A DNA stretch of 31,912 bases. Origin: a virus. Its lineage: Duplodnaviria; Caudoviricetes. Positions 3,003 to 30,627 of this stretch are shown piece by piece. A model generated the notes under the pieces. It was not told the DNA's origin and ran no database searches. It worked only from the letters and a program-made list of their open reading frames with translations. The stretch is taken from IMG/VR virus record IMGVR_UViG_3300032227_000840, positions 1 to 31,912 of that record; one strand, given 5' to 3'. The position numbers were made by a program, and so were the translations under genes. The number at the start of each line of letters is the position of its first letter. Position 1 is the stretch's first letter.

Positions 3003-3371
3003 ATGGCACTACGGACCAGCATGGAAGCGATCGAGGCCATGCCGATCTTCGCCAAGGCGAAGCCGGCGGCCGTCGGCCATGCCGCGGCCGAGGCCTGCGC
3101 GGCGAAGGCCGAGCGGACGACCGCGTTCGACGCCGGCCGGGCCAGGGCCGCTGTGCTCGAGGTCCTGGCGGACGGCCAGGCCCGCAGCGGCGAGCAGCTC
3201 GTCGATCACTGCCAGCGGATCGGGATAGTGCCACATGACGCGAGAGCGTTCGGGGCCGTGTTCGGCAAGCTGAAGCGGGACGGGCTGATCGAGGAGGCCG
3301 GGTTCGTCGCCAGGTCAAAGGGCCACGGGACGAGCGGTGGGCGGCTATGGAGGGCCACGCATGGCCGGTGA
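3003..3371 (+). CDS. Putative winged-helix DNA-binding protein
   Basis: Starts MALRTSMEAI right after the upstream stop. Helix-helix-wing pattern AVLEVLADG..SGEQLV..FGAVFGKLKRDGLIEEAG..LWR. Confidence 0.6.
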   Translation: MALRTSMEAIEAMPIFAKAKPAAVGHAAAEACAAKAERTTAFDAGRARAAVLEVLADGQARSGEQLVDHCQRIGIVPHDARAFGAVFGKLKRDGLIEEAGFVARSKGHGTSGGRLWRATHGR

Positions 3372-4221
3372 ATGGATTCCCTACGACGTTTGCCTACCCC
3401 AGAAGCCCGAGGTCCTGGACCTCGTCGACCGGACCGGCCTCGAGGTCGACCAGGTCGTCGGTCGGCTTCTGATGCTATGGGGATGGTCGGCACTGAACAG
3501 CTCCGACGGGTCGGCCCGGATGTCGCTCCGGCTCCTGTCGAAGGTCTGCGGGGGCGACGAGGCGTTCTGGTACGCGGTCCAGGAAGTCGGCTGGCTCGTG
3601 ATCGACGCGGAAAACGGAACAGTTGGTATCCCCGGATGGGACGCCAGGTTCTCAAAAGCCGCTAAATCAAGGGCCATGGCGACCGTCAGGCACCAGGTCG
3701 ACAAGGTTGGGGGCGCTACGCGCCCCCAGCGGGGGCGCGTAGCGCCCCCAGCCGGGGCGCAGCGCGCCAGAGAGAGAGGAGATAGAAGTTCTTCTTCTTC
3801 CCCCGGGACGGCTGAGCATGGAGACCAAGAGCCGGGCGACTGGGAGGCCCTGCGGAAGGCCTGGCAGGCCGGCAAGGGCCGCCCGTGGAATCTGCCAGAC
3901 CCGCCAGACAAGGCCGCCGACCGGCTGGCCGAGCCCGGCTGGTACGCGAAGGCCCTGGCGGCGATCGAGGCCCTCCCTCGCTGCCGCTACTTCCGCGACC
4001 CCGTGACGCTGCCGCAGCTCGTCGCGCCGGGATTCGTCGACAAGGTCCTCGGGGGCCAGTTCGACAACGCGAGGGATCACGCGCCGGCCCGCGGCGGCTA
4101 CCGCGGCGGCCAGGAAGACCGGCCGCCTCCGCAGGCCTGGTCGGGGAGCGACGCTGCCGCCTTCGAGGCGACGAAGCGGAAGCTCGCGGATCAGATCAGG
4201 TCACAGGAGGGCGCGGCGTAA
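3361..4221 (+). CDS. Phage replication initiator protein
   Basis: N-terminus MAGEWIP..LPQKPEV..VVGRLLMLWGW resembles lambdoid-prophage initiators. The central linker is encoded by ori-like repeats. GGAGG RBS. Confidence 0.7.
   Translation: MAGEWIPYDVCLPQKPEVLDLVDRTGLEVDQVVGRLLMLWGWSALNSSDGSARMSLRLLSKVCGGDEAFWYAVQEVGWLVIDAENGTVGIPGWDARFSKAAKSRAMATVRHQVDKVGGATRPQRGRVAPPAGAQRARERGDRSSSSSPGTAEHGDQEPGDWEALRKAWQAGKGRPWNLPDPPDKAADRLAEPGWYAKALAAIEALPRCRYFRDPVTLPQLVAPGFVDKVLGGQFDNARDHAPARGGYRGGQEDRPPPQAWSGSDAAAFEATKRKLADQIRSQEGAA
3708..3807. other. Putative replication origin within the initiator gene
   Basis: Perfect 20-bp inverted repeat (3708-3727/3731-3750), followed by a purine tract AGAGAGAGAGGAGATAGAAG and a pyrimidine tract TTCTTCTTCTTCCCCC. 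Confidence 0.55.
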
Positions 4222-4448
4222 TGGGACGACCACTCAACACCGGATCGGAGCCATGGGTCGATCCTGCCGAGGACGCCGCGAGCATGTCGAGTCTTCGGCT
4301 CGCTCCGGCGATCGAGGCCGAGGCCCGCAAACTCCGCGATGCTCACATCGGGCGACGCATGGCCGAGACCGAGGAGGCCGCGAGCGCGAAGATCGCGAAA
4401 TGGGCCGCCGGGATCTGCCGGCCACGGAGCGGAGGCCACAGGACGTGA
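4221..4448 (+). CDS. Hypothetical protein (MGRPLNTG...GGHRT)
   Basis: TAATG overlap with the initiator stop; AGGAGG RBS. Confidence 0.65.
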   Translation: MGRPLNTGSEPWVDPAEDAASMSSLRLAPAIEAEARKLRDAHIGRRMAETEEAASAKIAKWAAGICRPRSGGHRT

Positions 4449-4451
4449 GCG

Positions 4452-4541
4452 AGAGAACACGCAGGATCAGGAGCATCGCATGAGTGACGAAACGAAACCG
4501 CAGGACTCGGCAGCGATGTCTCCTGCATTCGCTGGTTCTCA
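4452..4541 (-). other. attC-like site 1
   Basis: Minus strand: TGAGAAC-CAGCG-AATGCAGG-AG-A-CATCGC...GCGATG-CT-CCTGATC-CTGCGT-GTTCTCT. This gives 7-5-8 / 7-6-7 box spacing with two unpaired bases on one arm. Confidence 0.8.
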
Positions 4542-4779
4542 GCCTGTAGCGTGGCGTGTCTATTCCGACGACGGCAGCGAGGCTGTCTACTCGCTTTACG
4601 AGCAGGCCCGCGCCGCAGCGGACGAATGGAACTGGAGCGTAGAGCCGCTCTACCGCCACCCGCGCCCAATGCTGACAGATAGAGAGATTGAAGCCCTTGA
4701 GTGGGCTGCAATAACTGCCAGCGAATCACTGGGGCACGCCGAAGCGATTCGCGGATTGCTTGAGCGATTGGATGACTGA
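4480..4779 (+). CDS. Cassette-borne hypothetical protein with LTD.E.EA...LLERL C-terminal motif
   Basis: AGGAG RBS and ATG lie inside attC-like site 1; sequence MSDETKPQDSAAMSPAFAGSQPVAW... Confidence 0.75.
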   Translation: MSDETKPQDSAAMSPAFAGSQPVAWRVYSDDGSEAVYSLYEQARAAADEWNWSVEPLYRHPRPMLTDREIEALEWAAITASESLGHAEAIRGLLERLDD

Positions 4780-5008
4780 TATGCGAGACGGGATACAGTG
4801 GTACGAGTTTCTTATTGCAGCAACTGTCTGCCCTGCGTCGTTCTTCTGGTCTGTGTGGCTTATTGGGTGGCTGACCAACTCAGACCCGCTGATTGAAGAA
4901 ATATGGCGGCTGCGAGGGCAAAACTCCGTGCTGCGCGAGCGGCTGGAGCAACTGGAGGGCGAGCGGCGGCGAGATGCAGATACGCTTCGCAAGGTGATCG
5001 GGAAGTGA
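4772..5008 (+). CDS. Cassette-borne membrane protein with coiled coil
   Basis: Hydrophobic FLIAATVCPASFFWSVWLIGWL followed by a heptad-like tail. The stop TGA forms part of the next core site, TGAGAAC. Confidence 0.65.
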   Translation: MTDMRDGIQWYEFLIAATVCPASFFWSVWLIGWLTNSDPLIEEIWRLRGQNSVLRERLEQLEGERRRDADTLRKVIGK

Positions 5009-5030
5009 GAACGCGTAGGATCAGGAGCGG
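5006..5030 (-). other. Truncated attC-like site (one arm only)
   Basis: TGAGAACGCGTAGGATCAGGAGCGG matches the left arms at 4453 and 5424; no partner arm follows. Confidence 0.65.
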
Positions 5031-5155
5031 TTGCTCCGCTGTATCGCCAGCCGAAACTCACCGACGCGGAGCAGAGGGCGATTGCGGTGGCGATTGTAGG
5101 CTCGCTTCCGTCTTACGCCGCCACGCTCCGCAACCTTTTGGAACGTATGACGTGA
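5030..5155 (+). pseudogene. 5'-deleted remnant of an LTD-motif cassette gene
   Basis: The frame reads VAPLYRQPKLTDAEQRAIAVAIVGSLPSYAATLRNLLERMT*, has no start codon, and is paralogous to the C-termini of 4480-4779 and 5182-5424. Confidence 0.65.
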
Positions 5156-5181
5156 CGCTCTAGAAAATCAGGTGCAGACAA

Positions 5182-5424
5182 ATGAGAGACAGCGAAATCA
5201 TTGCCATGCTCAAGAACGACTGCCCAATGTGCGGCCCCGCTGACTGCGCGTGCACGGCTACTGAGCAGGATCAATACAGAGAGATACAACGCCTGCGGCT
5301 CACCGACGAGGAGCGGGAGGCGATTGAGTTGTCGGCAGGCGACTACCTCTACCACCAAGACGCTGGAGGCCGAGCGCAGTGGATTCGGAAAACGCTGCTA
5401 GGGTTACTGGAACGACTGAAGTGA
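5182..5424 (+). CDS. Cassette-borne hypothetical protein (CxxCxxxxCxC plus LTD motif)
   Basis: CPMCGPADCAC and LTDEEREAIE...LLGLLERLK. The stop is embedded in TGAGAAC of the next site. Confidence 0.75.
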   Translation: MRDSEIIAMLKNDCPMCGPADCACTATEQDQYREIQRLRLTDEEREAIELSAGDYLYHQDAGGRAQWIRKTLLGLLERLK

Positions 5425-5510
5425 GAACGCCCAGGATCAGCGGCAGCGATGAAAGGACTCACTATGCTTAAAGACTATGCAACGCTGTCCGCTGCATCCG
5501 TTGGTTCTGC
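5422..5510 (-). other. attC-like site 2
   Basis: Minus strand: GCAGAAC-CAACG-GATGCAGC-GG-A-CAGCG...CGCTG-CC-GCTGATC-CTGGGC-GTTCTCA. Same spacing and same unpaired G and A as site 1, with compensatory stem changes. Confidence 0.82.
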
Positions 5511-5901
5511 CTGCTTTGAGTGCGGCGGTCTTGCCGACGTTGAGCATCACGTTGTTCCGAGATCACGAGGCGGCACGAAGACGGTGCGGCTGTGCGAGGA
5601 TTGCCACGGCAAGGCGCACGGAAGGGCGATGACCACGAACGCCCTCACGCGAGAGGCTCTTGCTCGCAAGCGGGCGAACGGCGAGCGAACTGGGCAGACT
5701 CCATTTGGGTTTGACCTCGCCAGCGATGGCCTGACGCTGATTCCCAACGCCGGCGAGCAGGAGTCGTTGGGTGTTATTCGGGGGCTGCGAACACAGGGAA
5801 TGACCCTTCGGGAGATTGCGGCTGAGATGAATCGGCGAGGCATCCGAACGAAAAAGGGCGGGCCTTGGGTTCATTCGACGATCCAGAGGATTGTCGGCTG
5901 A
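5464..5901 (+). CDS. HNH domain fused to a serine-recombinase-type DNA-binding 'recombinase' domain
   Basis: CFEC..HHVVPRSRGG..LCEDCHGKAH, then PFGF..IPNAGEQ..GMTLREIAAEMNRRGIRTKKGGPWVHSTIQRI. Start at 5464 (AAGGA RBS) or 5449, both inside attC-like site 2. Confidence 0.8.
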   Translation: MLKDYATLSAASVGSACFECGGLADVEHHVVPRSRGGTKTVRLCEDCHGKAHGRAMTTNALTREALARKRANGERTGQTPFGFDLASDGLTLIPNAGEQESLGVIRGLRTQGMTLREIAAEMNRRGIRTKKGGPWVHSTIQRIVG

Positions 5902-5904
5902 CAT

Positions 5905-6039
5905 AGGCAGAACCAGTGATTATGCGGACCCGGATATTCACCAATAACACGCCGTCCAGCCGCATATCACGCCGCCGATTCGCGCCACACGGCCGCTAGA
6001 CGCTGATCGCCGCCGCTATCGTGGTCCGCATAACACGCC
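5905..6039 (-). other. attI-like site
   Basis: Minus strand GCATAAT-CACTG-GTTCTGC (7-5-7 simple site), preceded by three direct repeats (plus strand ATA[A/T]CACGCC at 5944, 5964 and 6030). Confidence 0.6.
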
Positions 6040-6103
6040 TCGGTGATTCCATTGAATCCGCCCTCCACAGACCGCCAATAGACTCGACCGCGGAGGGCCA
6101 CGG

Positions 6104-6403
6104 ATGGCTTGTCTTCACCTGACGACCGAGCAGCTCGAGAAGGAGTTCGTCGCCGTGTTCGGCGACGGGGTCGCCGTGCCGACGAAGCTGTGGGTCGACC
6201 ACTTCCACGATTACCACACGTTCATTCGCGTCGTCTTCCCGAAGTTCACAGGGAAAGGGGCCGACCGGCTCCAAGACCTCCGCGACCGGCTGATGATCAA
6301 GTACGGATTCAAGCGGGCCGAGCTGTCGATCGTCGTCTTCATGGACGACGACTCCTACGACTTCTTCGCAGCCCACCGGCTCCACATTCACCTCGCCGGT
6401 TGA
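6104..6403 (+). CDS. Hypothetical protein
   Basis: GGAGG RBS, 99 aa, phage-like codon usage. Confidence 0.75.
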   Translation: MACLHLTTEQLEKEFVAVFGDGVAVPTKLWVDHFHDYHTFIRVVFPKFTGKGADRLQDLRDRLMIKYGFKRAELSIVVFMDDDSYDFFAAHRLHIHLAG

Positions 6404-6427
6404 TTCGCAGGGCAGGAAATCTACGGT
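6400..6427 (+). promoter_or_regulatory. Sigma70-like promoter candidate
   Basis: TTGATT-N16-TACGGT; the same architecture recurs at 27943, 30795 and 31379. Confidence 0.4.
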
Positions 6428-6450
6428 GAAGGTCCGCATGGAGGCGGATC

Positions 6451-6894
6451 GTGGAGTTCACCGTCGAGATACCAGGCGAAGCCGTTCCGCAGCCGCGGGC
6501 ACGAAGCACCCGCGGCGGTCGCATGTACACGCCGGACAACGGGATCGTGGCGTTCAAGCAGGCGGTCGGCCTGCTCGTGAAGGCCGAGGCGGCACGGCGG
6601 AGGATCTCACTGGACGATTCCTCCGCGTTCGTCCTCGAGGTCGTCTGTGTGTTCGGCCGCCCACTTTCCCACCTGACCACCTCGGGCGATCTGCGGACGA
6701 CGGCTCCGGCCTGGCCGGGCCTGCGGTGTGGCGACTGGGACAATCTCGCGAAAGGCGTCGCGGACGCGATCACGAAGACCGGGGCCGTGTGGAAGGACGA
6801 CTCGCAGGTCGTCGAGGGCCGCTGCCTGAAACGCTACGCGATTTGTGGGGAAGGACCGCGGACAGGGATCACGATCCGGAGGCTGCCTCCGTGA
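6451..6894 (+). CDS. rusA: RusA-family Holliday junction resolvase
   Basis: PQPRAR N-terminal motif, DWDNLAKGVADA and WKDDSQVV catalytic Asp motifs. Confidence 0.9.
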   Translation: MEFTVEIPGEAVPQPRARSTRGGRMYTPDNGIVAFKQAVGLLVKAEAARRRISLDDSSAFVLEVVCVFGRPLSHLTTSGDLRTTAPAWPGLRCGDWDNLAKGVADAITKTGAVWKDDSQVVEGRCLKRYAICGEGPRTGITIRRLPP

Positions 6895-7235
6895 CACGCC
6901 GCAGGCTCGCGGACGGTGATCGCGTTCTGACGACGGCCGAGGAGCGGATCGTCCGGAGAGCGATCGCCGGCGGAGCAACGCGAGCCGAGGCGGCCGCGGC
7001 CGCGGGTGTTCCGGTGAAGCGGGTCTACCGTGCCCTTCACGGTCAACTCTCCGACCTGCCTCCTGGGAAGCACGGCCCACGACCTGGCGTCGAGTATCCG
7101 CCCCAGCCGGAGTTCGTCGACCTTCCCGTCGAGGAAATCTACCGTCGCGCTGCCGAGCTGCGGGCCGAGCGATGGGGCGAGGACGAGACCGCGACCAGGT
7201 GGAACCCGAGATTCACCCCGCTAGACGACGCGTAG
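6891..7235 (+). CDS. Helix-turn-helix protein, possible late regulator
   Basis: GTGA overlap; GATRAEAAAAAGVPVKRVYRAL HTH pattern; last gene before the structural operon. Confidence 0.6.
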   Translation: MTRRRLADGDRVLTTAEERIVRRAIAGGATRAEAAAAAGVPVKRVYRALHGQLSDLPPGKHGPRPGVEYPPQPEFVDLPVEEIYRRAAELRAERWGEDETATRWNPRFTPLDDA

Positions 7236-7238
7236 GCT
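7208..7238 (+). promoter_or_regulatory. Putative late promoter motif, copy 1
   Basis: GAGATTC-N18-TAGGCT, ending 8 nt before ATG 7246. Confidence 0.55.
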
Positions 7239-7245
7239 TTTCGTC

Positions 7246-7566
7246 ATGGCTACCGTATCCGCAACGCCCGGCACGCTGAACATCATCGTGAAGCAAGGCC
7301 AGGCCGTGTCGCAACTGCTCGACTTCTCGATCGCCCTCACCGGCTACACGTTCTCGGCCGAGATCGTGTCGGCCGTGACGTTCGCGACCGTCCAGGCCCT
7401 GACGGTGTCGACGGTGAATCTCGCGACCGGTCAGGTGAACGTCGGGCTGTCGGCCGCCAACGCGGCGAACGTCGCGGCCGGGACGTATCTCTGGCGGCTC
7501 GTCTGGACGCCGGCCGCGGGCAACGCCCAGACGGCCCTCGAGGGGATCTGGGAGGTCGTCCGCTGA
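7246..7566 (+). CDS. Putative virion structural protein (beta-rich, adaptor-like)
   Basis: LNIIVKQG...GTYLWRLVW...LEGIWEV pattern; precedes the collagen-like gene. Confidence 0.6.
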
Positions 7567-12563: not shown

Positions 12564-13922
12564 ATGCCCAGCCCCAAGAATCGCCGCCCGTCCACCACTG
12601 GAGGCCGCGGCAGCCGACGCCGGACTCCGGCCAAGGCCGCCGCGGCCCCACGCGTGATACAGGTCCGCGGTACGTCGCTATCGTCGCCCGGAAGCTGGGG
12701 CTCGATCCTGCCGTCGGCTGTCGGCCCCGAGACCGCCGTCCGCGTGTCGGCGATCTTCGGCGTCGTCCGCTGGATCGCCCAGGCCGTCGGGATCTGCCCG
12801 ATGCAGATCATGCAGGAGCGGCCCGACGGTCGCCGGCAGAAGGCCGATCTACCCTGTGCCTACACGCTGCGGAAGCGGCCGAACCGCTGGCAGTCGGCGT
12901 GGGATTTCTACACGCTTCAGGCCTACTGGACCGCGCTCCACGGCAACGGCTACGCGAGGATCATGCCTGGCGACCGCGGCTGGATGACTCAACTCATTCC
13001 ACTCCATCCGTCGCGAGTTGTGGTCGAGCAGAACGCCGACTACTCCCTGGCCTACAAGTTCTGGAACGACAAGGGAATCTGGGAGCCGCTCGCCCAGGAG
13101 CAGGTCCTTCACTGGCGGTGGATCTCCGACAACGGGATCGTCGGTCACGCCCCGGCCGAGATGAACGCGACGAGTATCAACCTGGCCCGCCAGCTCGACA
13201 CCGCGGCTACCGCGTTCTGGTCGAACAGCGCGAGGCCCGACATGGTCCTCGAGACCGACGAGAAGATCCCCGACGCGGCGGTCGACGCGATTCGAGACGC
13301 TCTCCAGGAAGCCTACGGCGGGGCCGCGAATCGCGGCCGTGCTGCCGTGCTGCCGAAGAAGACGCGACTAAAGCCGATCGAGAGTAACTCGATGGAGGCG
13401 TCGCAGTTCCAGGAGCTGCGGGACGCGATCCTGCCAGACGTGTGTCGACACTGGGGCGTCCCTTCGACGCTCCTGGGCGACGCGAAGATGAACAAATACA
13501 GCACGGTCGAGCAGGAGCACCTATCCGCCCAAGTCTGGTGCCTCCTGCCGTGGGCTCGCCGGATGGAATCGCCGATCGACATGGCGCTCCAGCCGGTCTA
13601 TGGCGAGAACACCTACGCGAAGCTCGACACCCGCGGGATCCTGCGGGCCGACACCGCGGGCCGGGCTGCCCTCTATCAGTCGCTCTGGAACATGGGCGCG
13701 ATCACGCCAAACGAGATCCGCGACCGCGAAGACTTCGAGCTGCTCGACACCGAGGCCGCGAACCAGACCTACGTCCAGCTCGGGTTCTCCACGCTCGACG
13801 CCGCGGCCGCCCAGGCCGGGGCCGCCGGGGGCGAGCCGCCGGCTGCCGTCACCGACACGCCGGCGGCCGACACGACTCCAGCCGATCCGCAGACGACGCC
13901 CGACGCCACGATGGGGACCTGA
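12564..13922 (+). CDS. HK97-family portal protein
   Basis: KRPNRWQS, LHGNGY, LHPSRV, SQFQE, WGVP..LLG and ITPNEIR motifs. Confidence 0.95.
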   Translation: MPSPKNRRPSTTGGRGSRRRTPAKAAAAPRVIQVRGTSLSSPGSWGSILPSAVGPETAVRVSAIFGVVRWIAQAVGICPMQIMQERPDGRRQKADLPCAYTLRKRPNRWQSAWDFYTLQAYWTALHGNGYARIMPGDRGWMTQLIPLHPSRVVVEQNADYSLAYKFWNDKGIWEPLAQEQVLHWRWISDNGIVGHAPAEMNATSINLARQLDTAATAFWSNSARPDMVLETDEKIPDAAVDAIRDALQEAYGGAANRGRAAVLPKKTRLKPIESNSMEASQFQELRDAILPDVCRHWGVPSTLLGDAKMNKYSTVEQEHLSAQVWCLLPWARRMESPIDMALQPVYGENTYAKLDTRGILRADTAGRAALYQSLWNMGAITPNEIRDREDFELLDTEAANQTYVQLGFSTLDAAAAQAGAAGGEPPAAVTDTPAADTTPADPQTTPDATMGT

Positions 13923-13924
13923 CG

Positions 13925-14911
13925 ATGTCGCAACAGATCGAGACCCGCTACCTCTCGCAGTCGGCCGACCCTGATGTGGAGCTGCGGCTGGAGACCCGCG
14001 ACGACGGCCGCCCGGTGATCGTCGGCATGGCCCCGCCATGGAACAAGTGGTCGGTGGACCTGGGCGGGTTCAAAGAACGCTTCATGCCCGGGGCATTCCG
14101 GAAGTACCTCGACCGATCGCCGAACGACCCGCGAGGCAAGGCCGACGTGGTCGCGAAGTACAACCACATGGACTCCGCCGTCCTCGGCCGGACGACCAAC
14201 GGCACGCTCGACATCCAGGAGACCGAAAAGGGTCTCGTGTTCCGGGCGACCCCGCCGGTCGGCACGCCGACCACGGCCGAGGTCGTGCCCCTGATCCGCG
14301 ACCGCTACATCTTCGGGTCCTCGTTCGCCTTCTCGCTGACCGAGGCCCGTGGCGAGTCGTGGGACGAGGATCCCGCCGGCAACGTGACCAGGACGATCAC
14401 CGAGGCGGCCATCTTTGACGTGTCGCCGGTCACCCACGCCGCCTACCCGAACAGCTCCGTCGGCCTTCGCTCTCTCTCCGCATGGAAGGCAGCCCGTGGG
14501 CTCGTCCAGCACAGGGAGCAAGGCCGCGGGCTGCTAATCTCGCTCGACTACGACCGGACGTTCACCGCGGCCCCTGGCCTCTGGCGTTCGTTCGTCAACA
14601 TGGCGACGGCCGCCGGGAACCGCGTCGTATGTATCTCGCGACGCGAGGCGACCGACGAAAACCGCGAGGAGCTGCGGCTCGCGTTCGCGGACCTCGAGGT
14701 CGGAGACCTGATCCTCTGCGGGGCCGACACCCAGAAGCGCGACGCGGCCGCCCAGGCCGGGATCGCGGTCGACGTGTGGGTCGACGACTACCCCGAGGGA
14801 ATCGTGGCGGCCCAGGCCCCGGCGGCTCGCTCGTTCAAGGTCTCGACGCTCGCCGGATCGAAGGCTGCCGCCGCGGCCGCCGTCGCCCGGATGCGAATCA
14901 ACGCTGGCTAA
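13925..14911 (+). CDS. HK97-family prohead protease with C-terminal HAD-like domain
   Basis: LGGFKERF, YNH..VLGRT, GSSFAF and DVSPVTHAAYP, followed by ISLDYDRT...ISRR...VWVDDYPE. True start is MSQQIETR at 13925. Confidence 0.9.
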   Translation: MSQQIETRYLSQSADPDVELRLETRDDGRPVIVGMAPPWNKWSVDLGGFKERFMPGAFRKYLDRSPNDPRGKADVVAKYNHMDSAVLGRTTNGTLDIQETEKGLVFRATPPVGTPTTAEVVPLIRDRYIFGSSFAFSLTEARGESWDEDPAGNVTRTITEAAIFDVSPVTHAAYPNSSVGLRSLSAWKAARGLVQHREQGRGLLISLDYDRTFTAAPGLWRSFVNMATAAGNRVVCISRREATDENREELRLAFADLEVGDLILCGADTQKRDAAAQAGIAVDVWVDDYPEGIVAAQAPAARSFKVSTLAGSKAAAAAAVARMRINAG

Positions 14912-17724: not shown

Positions 17725-18495
17725 ATGCGGTCCGCCATCGTCTGGATGATCTTCGCGGCGTCAGCCCTCGCGGCTGACTGCGGCGTCTGCCAAGGTACGC
17801 GGACCGTCGGCCGGGTGCCGCTGTTCTATCCGTGCCAGGCCTGCCAGGGGACCGGAACGACGGCCGACATTCCGTCAGAAAAAACTAGCAGTATTCCTGA
17901 CCGAAAGCCGGGCCAGCCGCGGCCGTCCGTCTGCCGCGTCGTCTGCGGAGTCGGAGCTTCGCTCGAATGTAGTAGCGGCGTCCTCGTTCGCGTCAGTGGC
18001 ACGTCGGGCCTGGTCCTCACCGCGTGGCACTGTGTCCGCAGCAACCGTGACGCGGTCGACGTGTCGTTCCCGGACGGGCTGACAACCCGGGCCCGCGTTG
18101 TCGCGTGGGACCAGGACTGGGACCTCGCGGCCCTGGTCGTCGGCAGGCCAGACGCCGAGCCCGTGGCGATCGCCGCCCAGGCCCCGCGGCTCGGTGACCC
18201 GCTGACGATCGCCGGCTACGGCCCGGCCGGCGTCTACCGCGAGCAGACCGGGAAGGTGACCGACTACGGGTCACCAACCCGGAAACATCCAGCCCAGTTC
18301 GTCGAGCTCGAAGGGGCCGCCCGGCATGGCGACTCCGGCGGACCGATCTTCGACCAGGCCGGAGAGCTTGCCGGCGTCCTGTTCGGGGCCGCCCGGAACC
18401 GGACGATCGGATCCTGCTCGACGCGGATCGCCCTGTTCCTGGCCGAGGCCGACCGGAAGGCACCGGTCGCGACGCTCTGCGAGGTGCAACCGTGA
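17725..18495 (+). CDS. Trypsin-like serine protease with signal peptide and CxxCxG zinc motifs
   Basis: LTAWHC, WDLAAL and GDSGGP triad motifs; MRSAIVWMIFAASALA signal; CGVCQG and CQACQG. Confidence 0.92.
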   Translation: MRSAIVWMIFAASALAADCGVCQGTRTVGRVPLFYPCQACQGTGTTADIPSEKTSSIPDRKPGQPRPSVCRVVCGVGASLECSSGVLVRVSGTSGLVLTAWHCVRSNRDAVDVSFPDGLTTRARVVAWDQDWDLAALVVGRPDAEPVAIAAQAPRLGDPLTIAGYGPAGVYREQTGKVTDYGSPTRKHPAQFVELEGAARHGDSGGPIFDQAGELAGVLFGAARNRTIGSCSTRIALFLAEADRKAPVATLCEVQP

Positions 18496-19210: not shown

Positions 19211-20437
19211 ATGCCGTCGCCCAAGCTCGCCCGCCTCCAGGATGACGCCGCCAAGGTCGCCGCCGAGATCACCGATCTCCGCGCAGTCGAGCCGGCCGAC
19301 GATTCCGAGCGAACCCGGATCGAGGAGCGGCTCGCGTCCCTGTCGGAGCAGTCCGACACGATCTCGAATGAAGCGGCCGCCGAGCGAGCCCTCGACGAGA
19401 AGGTCGCCAGCCTCCGCACGGTCACCGAGTCGGCCAGCTCGCCGAAGCCGGCCGAAGTGGCCCAGGCCGAGGACTTCTCGCGGCCCGACATTCGGGCCGG
19501 CGTTCGAGCGTTCCGCTCGGCGAAGGTCGCGGCCGATGTCGGCGAGTTCCTGGTCCGTCTCGCCAGCGGCGAGAAGCGGGCCATGGGCGAGACCGTCAGC
19601 GGCTACGGTGACTCCTACGTCGTGACCGAGCTCTACGACGCGATCGTCAACCGGCTCCAGTACCAGTCGGTCGCGATGCAGCTCGCGAGCGTGTTCCGGC
19701 CCCGAGGCCAGAGCATCAACCTCCCGAAGAGCGGCGAGTTCACGGTTGCGTATGCCGCCGAGAACGCGGCGTTCACCGACCAGGACCTGTCGACCAGCGG
19801 CCCGACGCTGACCCTCTACGAGGCCGGCGGCTCGGTCGCGGTGTCGAACGCCCTCCTGAACGACTCGCCGATCGACGTGGCTGGTCTGCTCGTCGACCGG
19901 ATGTCCTACGGGTTCGCTACCTGGTATGACCAGAAGTGGCTCACCGGCAACGCGTCATCGCCGACGATCTCCGGCCTCCCGGCCGCGGTCGCCGCGATCG
20001 CGAGCAACCCCAACACCGTGACCGTGGCTCTCAACGCCTCGACGACCGCCGCGAACCTCGCGGACGTGGTCGGGAAGGTGGACGAAAGCATCATGGGAAC
20101 CGGCGCGTGGGTGGCTTCAAAAGCCGGCTACGTCGACCTGATGAAGCTGTGGGCAGCCCAACAGACGACCATGACGGTCGGTGGCGGTCGGGTCGTCCCG
20201 ACGGTCTACGGTGCTCCGGTCTACCTCGCCAAGGGTATGCCGGCGACCACGCTCGCCCTCTACGGTGACTTCTCGAAGTCGACCGCGGTCGGCCTTGCTG
20301 CCGAAGGGATCCAGATCACGGTCGCGAAGGAGCTGCTCGTCCGCAGCCGTCAGACGCTCTTCGTCGGATCCAGCCGCCTCGGCGTGCTGAATCACGGCCC
20401 CGAGTTCGTCGGTCGGCTGGCGAAGGCGACCTCCTGA
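19211..20437 (+). CDS. Major capsid protein, HK97 fold, with N-terminal delta (scaffold) domain
   Basis: Coiled-coil N-terminus; AYAAEN, VSNALLNDSPID, LTGN, TVYGAPV and YGDFS motifs. Confidence 0.9.
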   Translation: MPSPKLARLQDDAAKVAAEITDLRAVEPADDSERTRIEERLASLSEQSDTISNEAAAERALDEKVASLRTVTESASSPKPAEVAQAEDFSRPDIRAGVRAFRSAKVAADVGEFLVRLASGEKRAMGETVSGYGDSYVVTELYDAIVNRLQYQSVAMQLASVFRPRGQSINLPKSGEFTVAYAAENAAFTDQDLSTSGPTLTLYEAGGSVAVSNALLNDSPIDVAGLLVDRMSYGFATWYDQKWLTGNASSPTISGLPAAVAAIASNPNTVTVALNASTTAANLADVVGKVDESIMGTGAWVASKAGYVDLMKLWAAQQTTMTVGGGRVVPTVYGAPVYLAKGMPATTLALYGDFSKSTAVGLAAEGIQITVAKELLVRSRQTLFVGSSRLGVLNHGPEFVGRLAKATS

Positions 20438-29322: not shown

Positions 29323-29797
29323 AGCCGACCTCGAGGCCGCGGAGCAGCTCTGCCGCCGGCTCGGTCCGGCCAATTGCTGGACTGGGACGGGAGGTTCTCT
29401 AGCCTCGTTTGCTCTACGAATGATCCGAGAGCTGAAGGAGCGACACATGATCGAGACGAGAACAGCGGCCGAGCAGATGTTGGAGCAGTCGATAGCAGCC
29501 GTCCGCGACCGGCACGGCAAGTACGGACCGCCGGCGGAACACTTCGCCAGGACGGCCGCGATGGTGAACTCCGCCTTCGGGACGAAGTTCACGGCGTCCG
29601 ACTGGGCCCTCGTGATGATCCTCGACAAGGTCTCGCGGCAGCTCGGCGCAGCGGCCACCGACGACGGCGGGATCGACATCGCGGGATATGCTGCCTGCCA
29701 TCAGGAGTGCCGGGTCGCGTCGAGTTCGCCCAGGTCCAGCGGCGGCAGGGTGTCGACCGAGCAGGTGTCCCGCGGGCAGATCAGCGGGTCCACATAG
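29315..29797 (+). CDS. DUF6378-like protein (possible second start at 29447)
   Basis: DRHGKYGPPAEHFARTA..MILDKVSR..IDIAGYAAC. The 3' end overlaps the integrase on the opposite strand. Confidence 0.7.
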   Translation: MTEADLEAAEQLCRRLGPANCWTGTGGSLASFALRMIRELKERHMIETRTAAEQMLEQSIAAVRDRHGKYGPPAEHFARTAAMVNSAFGTKFTASDWALVMILDKVSRQLGAAATDDGGIDIAGYAACHQECRVASSSPRSSGGRVSTEQVSRGQISGST

Positions 29798-30627
29798 ACG
29801 GCCTGGAGGGCCGGGTCGCTGTGGTCGAGGAGCTGGGTCGCCGCGGCGGCTCCGCCCGCCAGGGCCGCGTATGAGGCGGCCATGCGGCGGAATCCGTGGA
29901 ACCCGCGGCCACGATACTCGACGCCGGCAGATCGGCACAGGACCTGTAGAGAGGCCCAGTGGCTGCGGGTCGCCCGGTCCCACGGCCAGACCAGGTCGTC
30001 CGGCCCGCGACGGTGCTCCGCGAGCATCACGGCGAGCTGCGGCGTCACGGCCCTCTCGATGTCGCGGGTCGCTCCTTTCCTCGTCCCGGCCAGGAAGATC
30101 ACGCGACGGCGGTCGAGGTCCACCTGGCCCCAGCGTAGCGACGTGAGGGCCTCGAATCGCTCGCCCGTGCATACGGCCGCGTAGATGAGCGTCGACCACC
30201 ACCACCGGGACGGCAGGCCGCCCGTCCTTCCGATCCGACGCTTCGCCGCCCTGATCAGAGAGCCGACCTCGTCGGCCGTGTAGGCACGACCCAGAGGGAT
30301 TGTCTTCGGGACTTTGACACGCGGGACCTCGGGAAACTCTGTAGTGATTTTCTTACGGGCGAGGTATTCCCAGACGGCCCGGATCATGTTCCTGTCCTTC
30401 CTGATCGTGGCCGGCTTCGGCAGGCGATCACGCCACCCAGGCGTAACTCGTCGCCATTCCAAATACTCCGCGACGACCACGTCCTCGAGGTCTCCGACCG
30501 TCGGCGGTCGTTTCAAGAATCGCTCGAGACGATCGAAGAGCATCCCGTAGAGCGAGACCGTGTGAGGCTTCAACTCGCGGAGCAAGGCATACCGACGAAA
30601 CGCATCACGAAGCAACATAGAACGCAT
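29701..30627 (-). CDS. int: Tyrosine recombinase / phage integrase
   Basis: TGERFEAL (R), TRK (K), FHGFRR (HxxR), LLDHS (H) and AVYVD (Y); AAGGAAG RBS on the - strand. Confidence 0.92.
   Translation of the reverse strand: MRSMLLRDAFRRYALLRELKPHTVSLYGMLFDRLERFLKRPPTVGDLEDVVVAEYLEWRRVTPGWRDRLPKPATIRKDRNMIRAVWEYLARKKITTEFPEVPRVKVPKTIPLGRAYTADEVGSLIRAAKRRIGRTGGLPSRWWWSTLIYAAVCTGERFEALTSLRWGQVDLDRRRVIFLAGTRKGATRDIERAVTPQLAVMLAEHRRGPDDLVWPWDRATRSHWASLQVLCRSAGVEYRGRGFHGFRRMAASYAALAGGAAAATQLLDHSDPALQAVYVDPLICPRDTCSVDTLPPLDLGELDATRHS

Follow-up and report, generated by a model that had tools for sequence, protein, structure and literature searches.

Introduction

Phages that lack an integron integrase (IntI) gene are known to carry clusters of attC recombination sites: 17 such attC site clusters without an integron integrase (CALINs) were reported in 10,705 genomes, IntI1 recombines five of six phage attC sites in E. 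coli, and one CALIN, in a Shewanella prophage, was reported with an attI site at its start (Qi et al. 2023, PMC9892861). Here we describe a platform of attI and attC sites in the virus record IMGVR_UViG_3300032227_000840, of which the window (the whole stretch of DNA analysed, 31,912 nt) is the complete genome of a circular temperate phage from a lake. An attI-like site and three cassettes are set backwards in the early region of this phage, which encodes no IntI, and we think it probable that the phage borrows the IntI of Pirellulales planctomycetes and with it acquires, loses and reshuffles cassettes that pass from phage to phage.

In the CALIN concept at least two attC sites have no nearby intI, and mobilisation by an integrase encoded elsewhere was proposed there; the same paper describes how cassettes are created as unknown (Cury et al. 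2016, PMC4889954). The phage array satisfies the CALIN definition but differs from the concept in that it keeps an attI, and its relatives show that attI receiving different cassettes. It resembles the phage CALINs of Qi et al. in having clustered attC sites and no intI, and the phage attC sites of that study are IntI1 substrates. However, the accessible parts of that paper treat CALINs as captured bacterial pieces and describe no planctomycete phage, mirror layout, attC-encoded start or exchange between phages; of its arrays, we find that TJE1 is classical in polarity and that P12002L has one site each way. A literature search, with the subscription literature mostly outside its reach, returned no paper on mirror-polarity arrays with attI in phages. 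Phage attC clusters are thus already published, whereas the mirror layout with attI was not found in the literature searched.

IntI cuts the AAC of the folded bottom strand, and the choice of strand fixes orientation (Nivina et al. 2016, PMC5027507). Inverted cassette insertion through the top strand, also treated there, likewise yields a gene facing against the array, but in the inversion as described it is the cassette together with its attC that flips, whereas the phage attC and attI sites keep their normal mutual polarity and only the gene is reversed, throughout the pool. The intI gene is often under SOS control, and single-stranded DNA, including that of phage infection, favours the folding of attC (PMC8946536).

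A taxon-specific attC model exists for Planctomycetota (Ghaly et al. 2021, PMC8352920). The sedentary chromosomal integrons of planctomycetes share with the phage the attC geometry, the extra bases, GTTC-type R boxes, the pairing of each cassette with its own end, and a similar attI core with GTTAT repeats; they differ in having intI adjacent and genes on the top strand that end near R'', and none of 50 chromosomal cassettes has a Shine-Dalgarno (SD) motif plus ATG inside its attC. The attI1 of class 1 integrons (R100) shares L and R boxes 5 nt apart and two upstream direct repeats at about -32 and -51 (-35 and -55 in the phage), but the class 1 R box is GTTRRRY rather than GTTCTGC, the extra base on the bottom strand is G rather than C, and a Pc promoter and intI1 are present.

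Results

The original prediction, made from the letters of the window, placed four sites on the - strand, and all four are found there, the third of them only a half site:

5905..6039, - strand: attI-like site; R box GTTCTGC, crossover 5912/5913, L box GCATAAT 5 nt before the R box
5422..5510, - strand: attC of cassette 1; crossover 5427/5428, covariance model 54.2 bits, E 1.5e-13
5006..5030, - strand: half attC (L' and R' only); crossover 5011/5012, repeat family D2
4452..4541, - strand: last attC; crossover 4457/4458, covariance model 31.9 bits, E 5e-7

Comparison sites came from genomes of the order of a Pirellulales metagenome-assembled genome (MAG), in which IntI was found by TIGR02249; 35 of 201 genomes carry an IntI over its cut-off, and 20 stretches around intI were taken. 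A covariance model built from 49 chromosomal attC sites adjoining intI, with no phage sequence included, supports the two full sites, the third-best match in the phage genome reaching only 9.7 bits; it does not detect the half site at 5006-5030. A rule-based detector, which found 72 sites around planctomycete intI genes, returned only 4456-4537 and 5426-5506 from the whole phage, both on the - strand. This detector missed the aadA1 attC of R100, the AAC-GTT span of which is below its 50-nt floor, and its counts are lower bounds; a later version fixes T[GC]xA, and extra-base counts from that version are not used here. A pattern made from the phage sites matched at least 120 loci in a species collection, with titles that are mostly planctomycetes (an inexact count) and IntI beside eight of them.

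In both full sites AAC is followed by a spacer of 5 nt, an 8-nt L'' bearing one extra base, a further extra base, then a 7-nt L', a spacer of 6 nt and GTT, so that the inverted R''/L'' and L'/R' boxes with their 5- and 6-nt spacers are complete at 4452-4541 and 5422-5510 and incomplete at 5006-5030. The extra-helical bases lie opposite the cut AAC arm, at model positions 16 and 23. The earlier claim that the two sites agree in spacing, cores and extra bases, with covarying stems, holds: the stems differ in sequence yet still pair. The bulged C on the recombining strand, which had been singled out as an oddity, is instead the planctomycete norm, 67 of 72 chromosomal sites having G as the first extra base on the top strand. 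A classical array on the + strand was rejected as a reading, the extra bases, spacers and own-end pairing all making the - strand the top strand.

Structure is kept despite sequence change, with compensatory changes between copies of cassette 1's attC, and covariation in the family is 0.60 versus 0.165 when shuffled, for sites that had been picked for pairing. Folding by itself is modest (z -2.2 and -2.4 for the + strand of the two full sites), and scores of only about -2 are what chance hairpins or terminators might give. That reading is scarcely credible given E values of 1e-13 and 5e-7 to an independent model, the covariation and the modular exchange described below; moreover, there is no terminator match at the sites on the + strand, and Rfam gave no matches up to E 1. 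Minimal 49-nt attC sites of the same family occur in many phages (L305:6844-6892, L309, L312, L347, L054 and others), some directly after the replication initiator gene, rep.

For the attI-like site, the 450-bp flanks of 30 chromosomal intI genes were searched for a motif anchored on GTT; the search converged on 10 sites, and the resulting matrix ranks the crossover at 5913(-) first among the 595 GTT sites of the phage (13.3 bits versus 0.3), in agreement with the earlier assignment. A chromosomal attI outside the training set (L406) reads GGCATAATCACTAGTT, and the phage site CGCATAATCACTGGTT. Upstream there are direct repeats of the GTTAT type, at 35, 55 and 121 nt in the phage and at 32, 51 and 76 nt in attI1 of R100. 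The element is kept in other phages from AGAAC rightwards, with a varying left flank. A matrix site of at least 5 bits heads 31 of 60 viral arrays and none of the 60 in an opposite-strand control; leaving out the window itself and arrays retrieved through the attI pattern, eight in all, an attI-like head remains in 23 of 52, and 18 of the 23 have perfect own-end pairing. The site thus has the L and R boxes, the G|TT crossover at the head of the array and the likeness to chromosomal attI, and has no adjoining intI and no recognisable Pc promoter. A sigma-70 scan of 3300-7300 returned no promoters, a weak test in that the consensus is uninformative for a planctomycete phage. An attC, or a functional hairpin, at 5905-6039 was rejected, there being no covariance-model match and the second inverted arm being altered in relatives. 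A loose attI pattern gave 24 matches, several by chance (L005-L009, L012, L018, L021, L023). L351 and L352 have an attI-like site (15.3 bits) some 740 nt beyond rep, and the model detects no attC before it.

These sites divide the array as follows, with coordinates given for cassettes and for the open reading frames (ORFs) within them:

5428..5912, - strand: cassette 1, first position; own ends pair over 9 bp, versus 5 bp with the neighbour
5464..5901, + strand: HNH and Recombinase-domain (PF07508) gene of cassette 1; AGGA (5454-5457) and ATG in the attC loop
5012..5427, - strand: cassette 2, damaged; R''/L'' arm of its attC and a gene start lost
5182..5424, + strand: 80-residue ORF with the tail LTDEEREAI...LLERLK; overlap between its stop codon and the R' box of the next attC, relatives in other arrays
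5030..5155, + strand: headless gene remnant, LTDAEQRAI...LLERMT; longer allele in run X20
4458..5011, - strand: cassette 3, two genes; own ends pair over 7 bp, versus 6 bp with the neighbour
4772..5008, + strand: 78-residue ORF of cassette 3; stop overlaps TGAGAAC at the half site, homologues about 70% identical in seven viral loci
4480..4779, + strand: 99-residue ORF starting inside attC 4452-4541; AGGAG (4469-4473) in the L' stem, six bases before the ATG

The phage cassette genes run opposite to classical cassettes relative to their own attC sites, which went unnoticed in the original prediction. A classical cassette has its ORF on the top strand with attC at the 3' end; here the bottom strand carries all array ORFs, two of which start within their own attC. 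The first 20 codons of gene 4480-4779 derive from the attC site, and genes 4772-5008 and 5182-5424 end on the TGA of TGAGAAC. The ATG at 5464 is kept in all four known copies of cassette 1, whereas that at 5449 is not. Gene 4480-4779 has only four distant related loci (41-42%), and the 80-residue ORF has no Pfam or PHROG match.

This polarity is common to the viral arrays. An antisense ATG lies inside the cassette's own attC in 96 of 135 viral versus 8 of 50 chromosomal cassettes, an SD-like motif plus ATG in 83 of 135 versus none of 50, and a stop near R'' on the classical strand in 25 of 135 versus 36 of 50. By longest ORF, a noisy measure in GC-rich DNA, 112 of the 135 viral cassettes are antisense and 38 of the 50 chromosomal ones sense. 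A stricter rule scores the viral set as 80 antisense-only, 7 sense-only, 38 both and 10 neither, and the chromosomal set as 1, 28, 12 and 9 respectively. At 80 loci anchored on Rep, and so chosen by protein rather than by site, every model match is on the strand opposite rep; among the best seven of 35 terminase-anchored loci, all six with 10 kb upstream carry such sites, and the seventh (3.9 kb upstream) has none. Genes with LTxxER tails occur in 17 of 135 viral and none of 50 chromosomal cassettes. Because the genes lie opposite to the classical strand and start inside their own attC, the exchanged pool appears to be mainly phage-type rather than host-type, and host-type cassettes would be silent in this platform. 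Two viral contigs, L038 and L099, hold classical top-strand cassettes of low GC content, and L099 may mix both kinds.

Cassettes move as units bounded by the AA|C points. Cassette 1 is present in three further phage contigs (L435, L436 and L437), with bodies 99.8, 94.5 and 97% identical, each time with a different attI allele and a different left neighbour and with breaks at the AAC cores. In L437 the attC is much changed, the stem going from CAGCG/CGCTG to CGGCC/GGCCG with pairing kept. Pieces of cassette 3 (4453/4454 to 5011/5014, with two or three differences) are found in runs X2 and X20, and 4477-5014 in X12; lake-run contigs also have loose ends at 4453/4454 with other left flanks. The variation among relatives foreseen at the AAC cores is thus observed for cassettes 1 and 3. 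In L299 and L300, whose downstream backbone is 96% identical, the last attC and attI are kept with other genes inside. The HNH and Recombinase-domain cassette adjoins attI in four of four phages, and the atlas clusters of its protein are 94-100% viral; it is possibly a recently spreading or selfish cassette.

A contig of run X20 matches 4453-5014 and 5036-5336 and has 205 letters where the window has 21 (5015-5035), and we read 5006-5030 as the deletion remnant of an attC because of these additional letters. The deletion removed the other attC arm and a gene start.

After a cut at G|TT, the beginning of a cassette retains the bases complementary to its own R''. Among 135 distinct viral cassettes, 106 show perfect pairing of the four outer R positions with the cassette's own end and 14 with the neighbouring end; own-end pairing is better in 102 and worse in 11 (sign test p 1e-19, indicative only since cassettes share kinship). 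Chromosomal arrays give 37 of 50 versus 11 of 50. Perfect own-end pairing reads as a footprint of IntI recombination in both sets. An all-against-all search of the 135 cassettes gave one shared pair only, and reordering is thinly sampled.

The limits of the platform as a whole are as follows:

4446..6052, no strand assigned: the complete platform (1,607 bp), delimited by a TGA repeat at 4446-4448, where it is the stop codon of the upstream ORF, and at 6053-6055

The block is absent, with an exact 4448/6053 joint through the common TGA, in nine of 19 related loci aligned, and the same empty joint occurs in contigs of two of four lake runs. Insertion of the whole block by IntI was rejected, as neither end is at a G|TT crossover; the platform came or went by a non-IntI event at the 3-bp TGA overlap. 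Of 49 Rep-anchored loci with at least 3 kb downstream, 34 have neither site within 4 kb, nine have attC only, five have both and one has attI only. A quick tree of Rep requires 10 changes of platform state, at least six by well-supported branches. Since the more distant relatives are empty, gain of the platform seems likelier than loss, and the TGA overlap and the patchy tree suggest that the block itself would spread by ordinary recombination in the phage backbone rather than by IntI. GC content is 58-61% over the roughly 1.5 kb of the platform and 64-70% around it, and INPHARED phages gave no match to window 4440-6060.

The first 50 bases of the genome are repeated at its end, and contigs of the best-matching lake run close the circle. 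A PHROGs scan of 64 ORFs assigns Sak4-like, HNH nuclease, replication initiator, RusA, terminase, portal, capsid and tail genes and one integrase. The platform sits between rep and rusA, with every platform ORF on the + strand, and rep presumably sets the direction of transcription for the region. The genes referred to in the argument are:

462-1376: Sak4-like gene, from PHROGs
3361..4221, + strand: replication initiator (rep), upstream of the platform, PHROG 2509
6451..6894, + strand: RusA resolvase, downstream of the platform, from PHROGs and profile scans
29701..30627, - strand: ordinary phage tyrosine integrase, not IntI, from profile scans and alignment

In alignment the phage integrase shows gaps where IntI has its insertion, with 60 residues from the catalytic K to HxxR compared with 106 in IntI1, 108 in a planctomycete IntI and 65 in a Xer-like control, so that the earlier judgement that it is too short stands. 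It has no TIGR02249 match, and three IntI queries against the phage genome in six frames gave nothing significant. Both this integrase and the Recombinase-domain protein of cassette 1 are encoded in the phage and could in principle act on the sites, but we regard this as very improbable, as the integrase is without the IntI insertion needed for folded sites, and the cassette protein, which most arrays lack, has only an HNH-like domain and the Recombinase domain that binds DNA. With no IntI carrying the specific insertion, the array works as an integron platform would and falls under the definition of a CALIN, but is neither a complete integron nor a classical cassette array. The proposal of a landing pad with a cassette array but no integrase is upheld by the model matches, the variation at AAC cores and the likeness to planctomycete attC and attI sites, with its polarity amended.

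Rep homologues (68 and 52%) are found in two of 401 genomes of the Pirellulales order, both MAG bins and both encoding IntI, and one of them has an attI with TCCGCATAAT beside IntI as well as a phage contig with the same mirror array. The host is likely to be a Pirellulales planctomycete, and we infer that the phage uses the host IntI. Among chromosomal integrons of the order (L415-L434), intI faces either way with respect to the array; three or more intI loci are present in G001 and G124. An ArdC-like anti-restriction gene lies beside the integrase in a related phage contig (L482:8827-9780).

Discussion

The sites, their polarity, the lack of IntI, the movement of cassettes as AA|C-bounded units and the presence or absence of the platform in relatives are observed directly, and there is a plausible route by which they could work together. 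The + strand of attC would fold during infection or induction, a host IntI, which probably still serves the platform, would cut the folded site at AA|C, and the cassette excised as a circle could then integrate at attI in a co-infecting phage or a prophage. With the array set against the direction of the phage operon, attC stands at the 5' end of each gene, where it would supply a ribosome site and start codon; with a stop codon at the next junction, each cassette would be a self-contained translation unit on the phage early transcript, with no Pc promoter needed.

Several observations weigh against this reading. The attI matrix rests on only 10 of 30 intI flanks, and an 18-base core pattern gives 20 matches in 401 genomes versus nine for a reversed control, with intI within 1.5 kb at three of the 20. 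The evidence for the host consists of the likeness of the sites and of phage contigs found within MAG bins, and no host genes were recognised among 14 ORFs scanned on the phage contig G377:C24. All four copies of cassette 1 are in first position, so that its reordering is not seen, and contigs of four lake runs contain no excised circle or cassette-skipping joint. In addition, one viral contig of the 254 viral loci searched (L060, 487-2357) encodes an IntI of its own (339 bits, over the TIGR02249 cut-off), which is read in the same direction as the phage genes; an attI-like site and attC lie upstream of it and a portal-like gene downstream. The same chemistry could therefore be driven by an integrase that intI-bearing co-infecting phages or prophages supply in place of the host chromosome. 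We consider this improbable: the loci searched are stretches of 0.4-13 kb rather than whole genomes, but only one has IntI, the L060 attI differs from the attI family of this phage, and the sites of this phage agree with those of planctomycete chromosomes.

Recombination of other kinds also acts here: cassette 2 is damaged, a single unit of L299 comprises three genes, and genes with LTxxER tails are found in relatives that have no att sites as well. Taken further, these features could describe a relic, built once by IntI, in which the attC leaders are now only translation starts and the LTDEEREAI tails are short homologies for the phage's own Sak4-like recombination (462-1376). The half site and headless gene, the abundance of the tails in lake runs, and the much-changed attC of L437 beside a 97% identical body would all suit such an array. 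We nonetheless regard it as unlikely, although less so than a phage-borne source of integrase. Homology swaps would not preserve own-end pairing at 106 of 135 cassettes, nor would they be expected to place a cassette of 99.8% identity next to another attI with a break that falls at the core; attI is retained at array heads, and the L437 changes keep the attC stem paired. The LTDEEREAI coding stretch itself (5298-5329; peak 5255-5331) is very common in lake assemblies, at a depth of 660-990 versus about 10-30 nearby, and is a C-terminal tail common to many small phage genes.

We thus favor a platform served by a borrowed host IntI, and offer more tentatively, at slightly less than even chances, the broader picture of a mirror-image integron economy, in which a portable integrase-free attI module spreads, and phages mint cassettes by fronting their own small genes with an attC starter and trade them via a hijacked host IntI. 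The birth of cassettes may be watchable here, because like genes exist with and without attC and one body occurs with two attC sites. If so, phage mosaicism would have a site-specific engine besides homologous and illegitimate recombination, and a host adaptation enzyme would have become a tool of its parasites. An attC could double as a ribosome-binding and start module, and a cassette pool could be private to phages, its polarity silencing it in a host integron. The pool provides both filled and empty alleles, like genes in cassette and in non-cassette form, and sites short enough for the standard E. coli assay, and the window adds the full set in one genome: a whole phage, an intact attI, empty alleles and one cassette at four docking sites.

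Two further features of the phage genome lie outside the platform. Window 3705-3768, inside the rep gene, contains GC-rich palindromes and 22-bp repeats and is a possible replication origin. The prohead protease and major capsid genes are about 4 kb apart (13442-14911, 17725-18495, 19211-20437), with unassigned ORFs between them that include a second protease-like gene.

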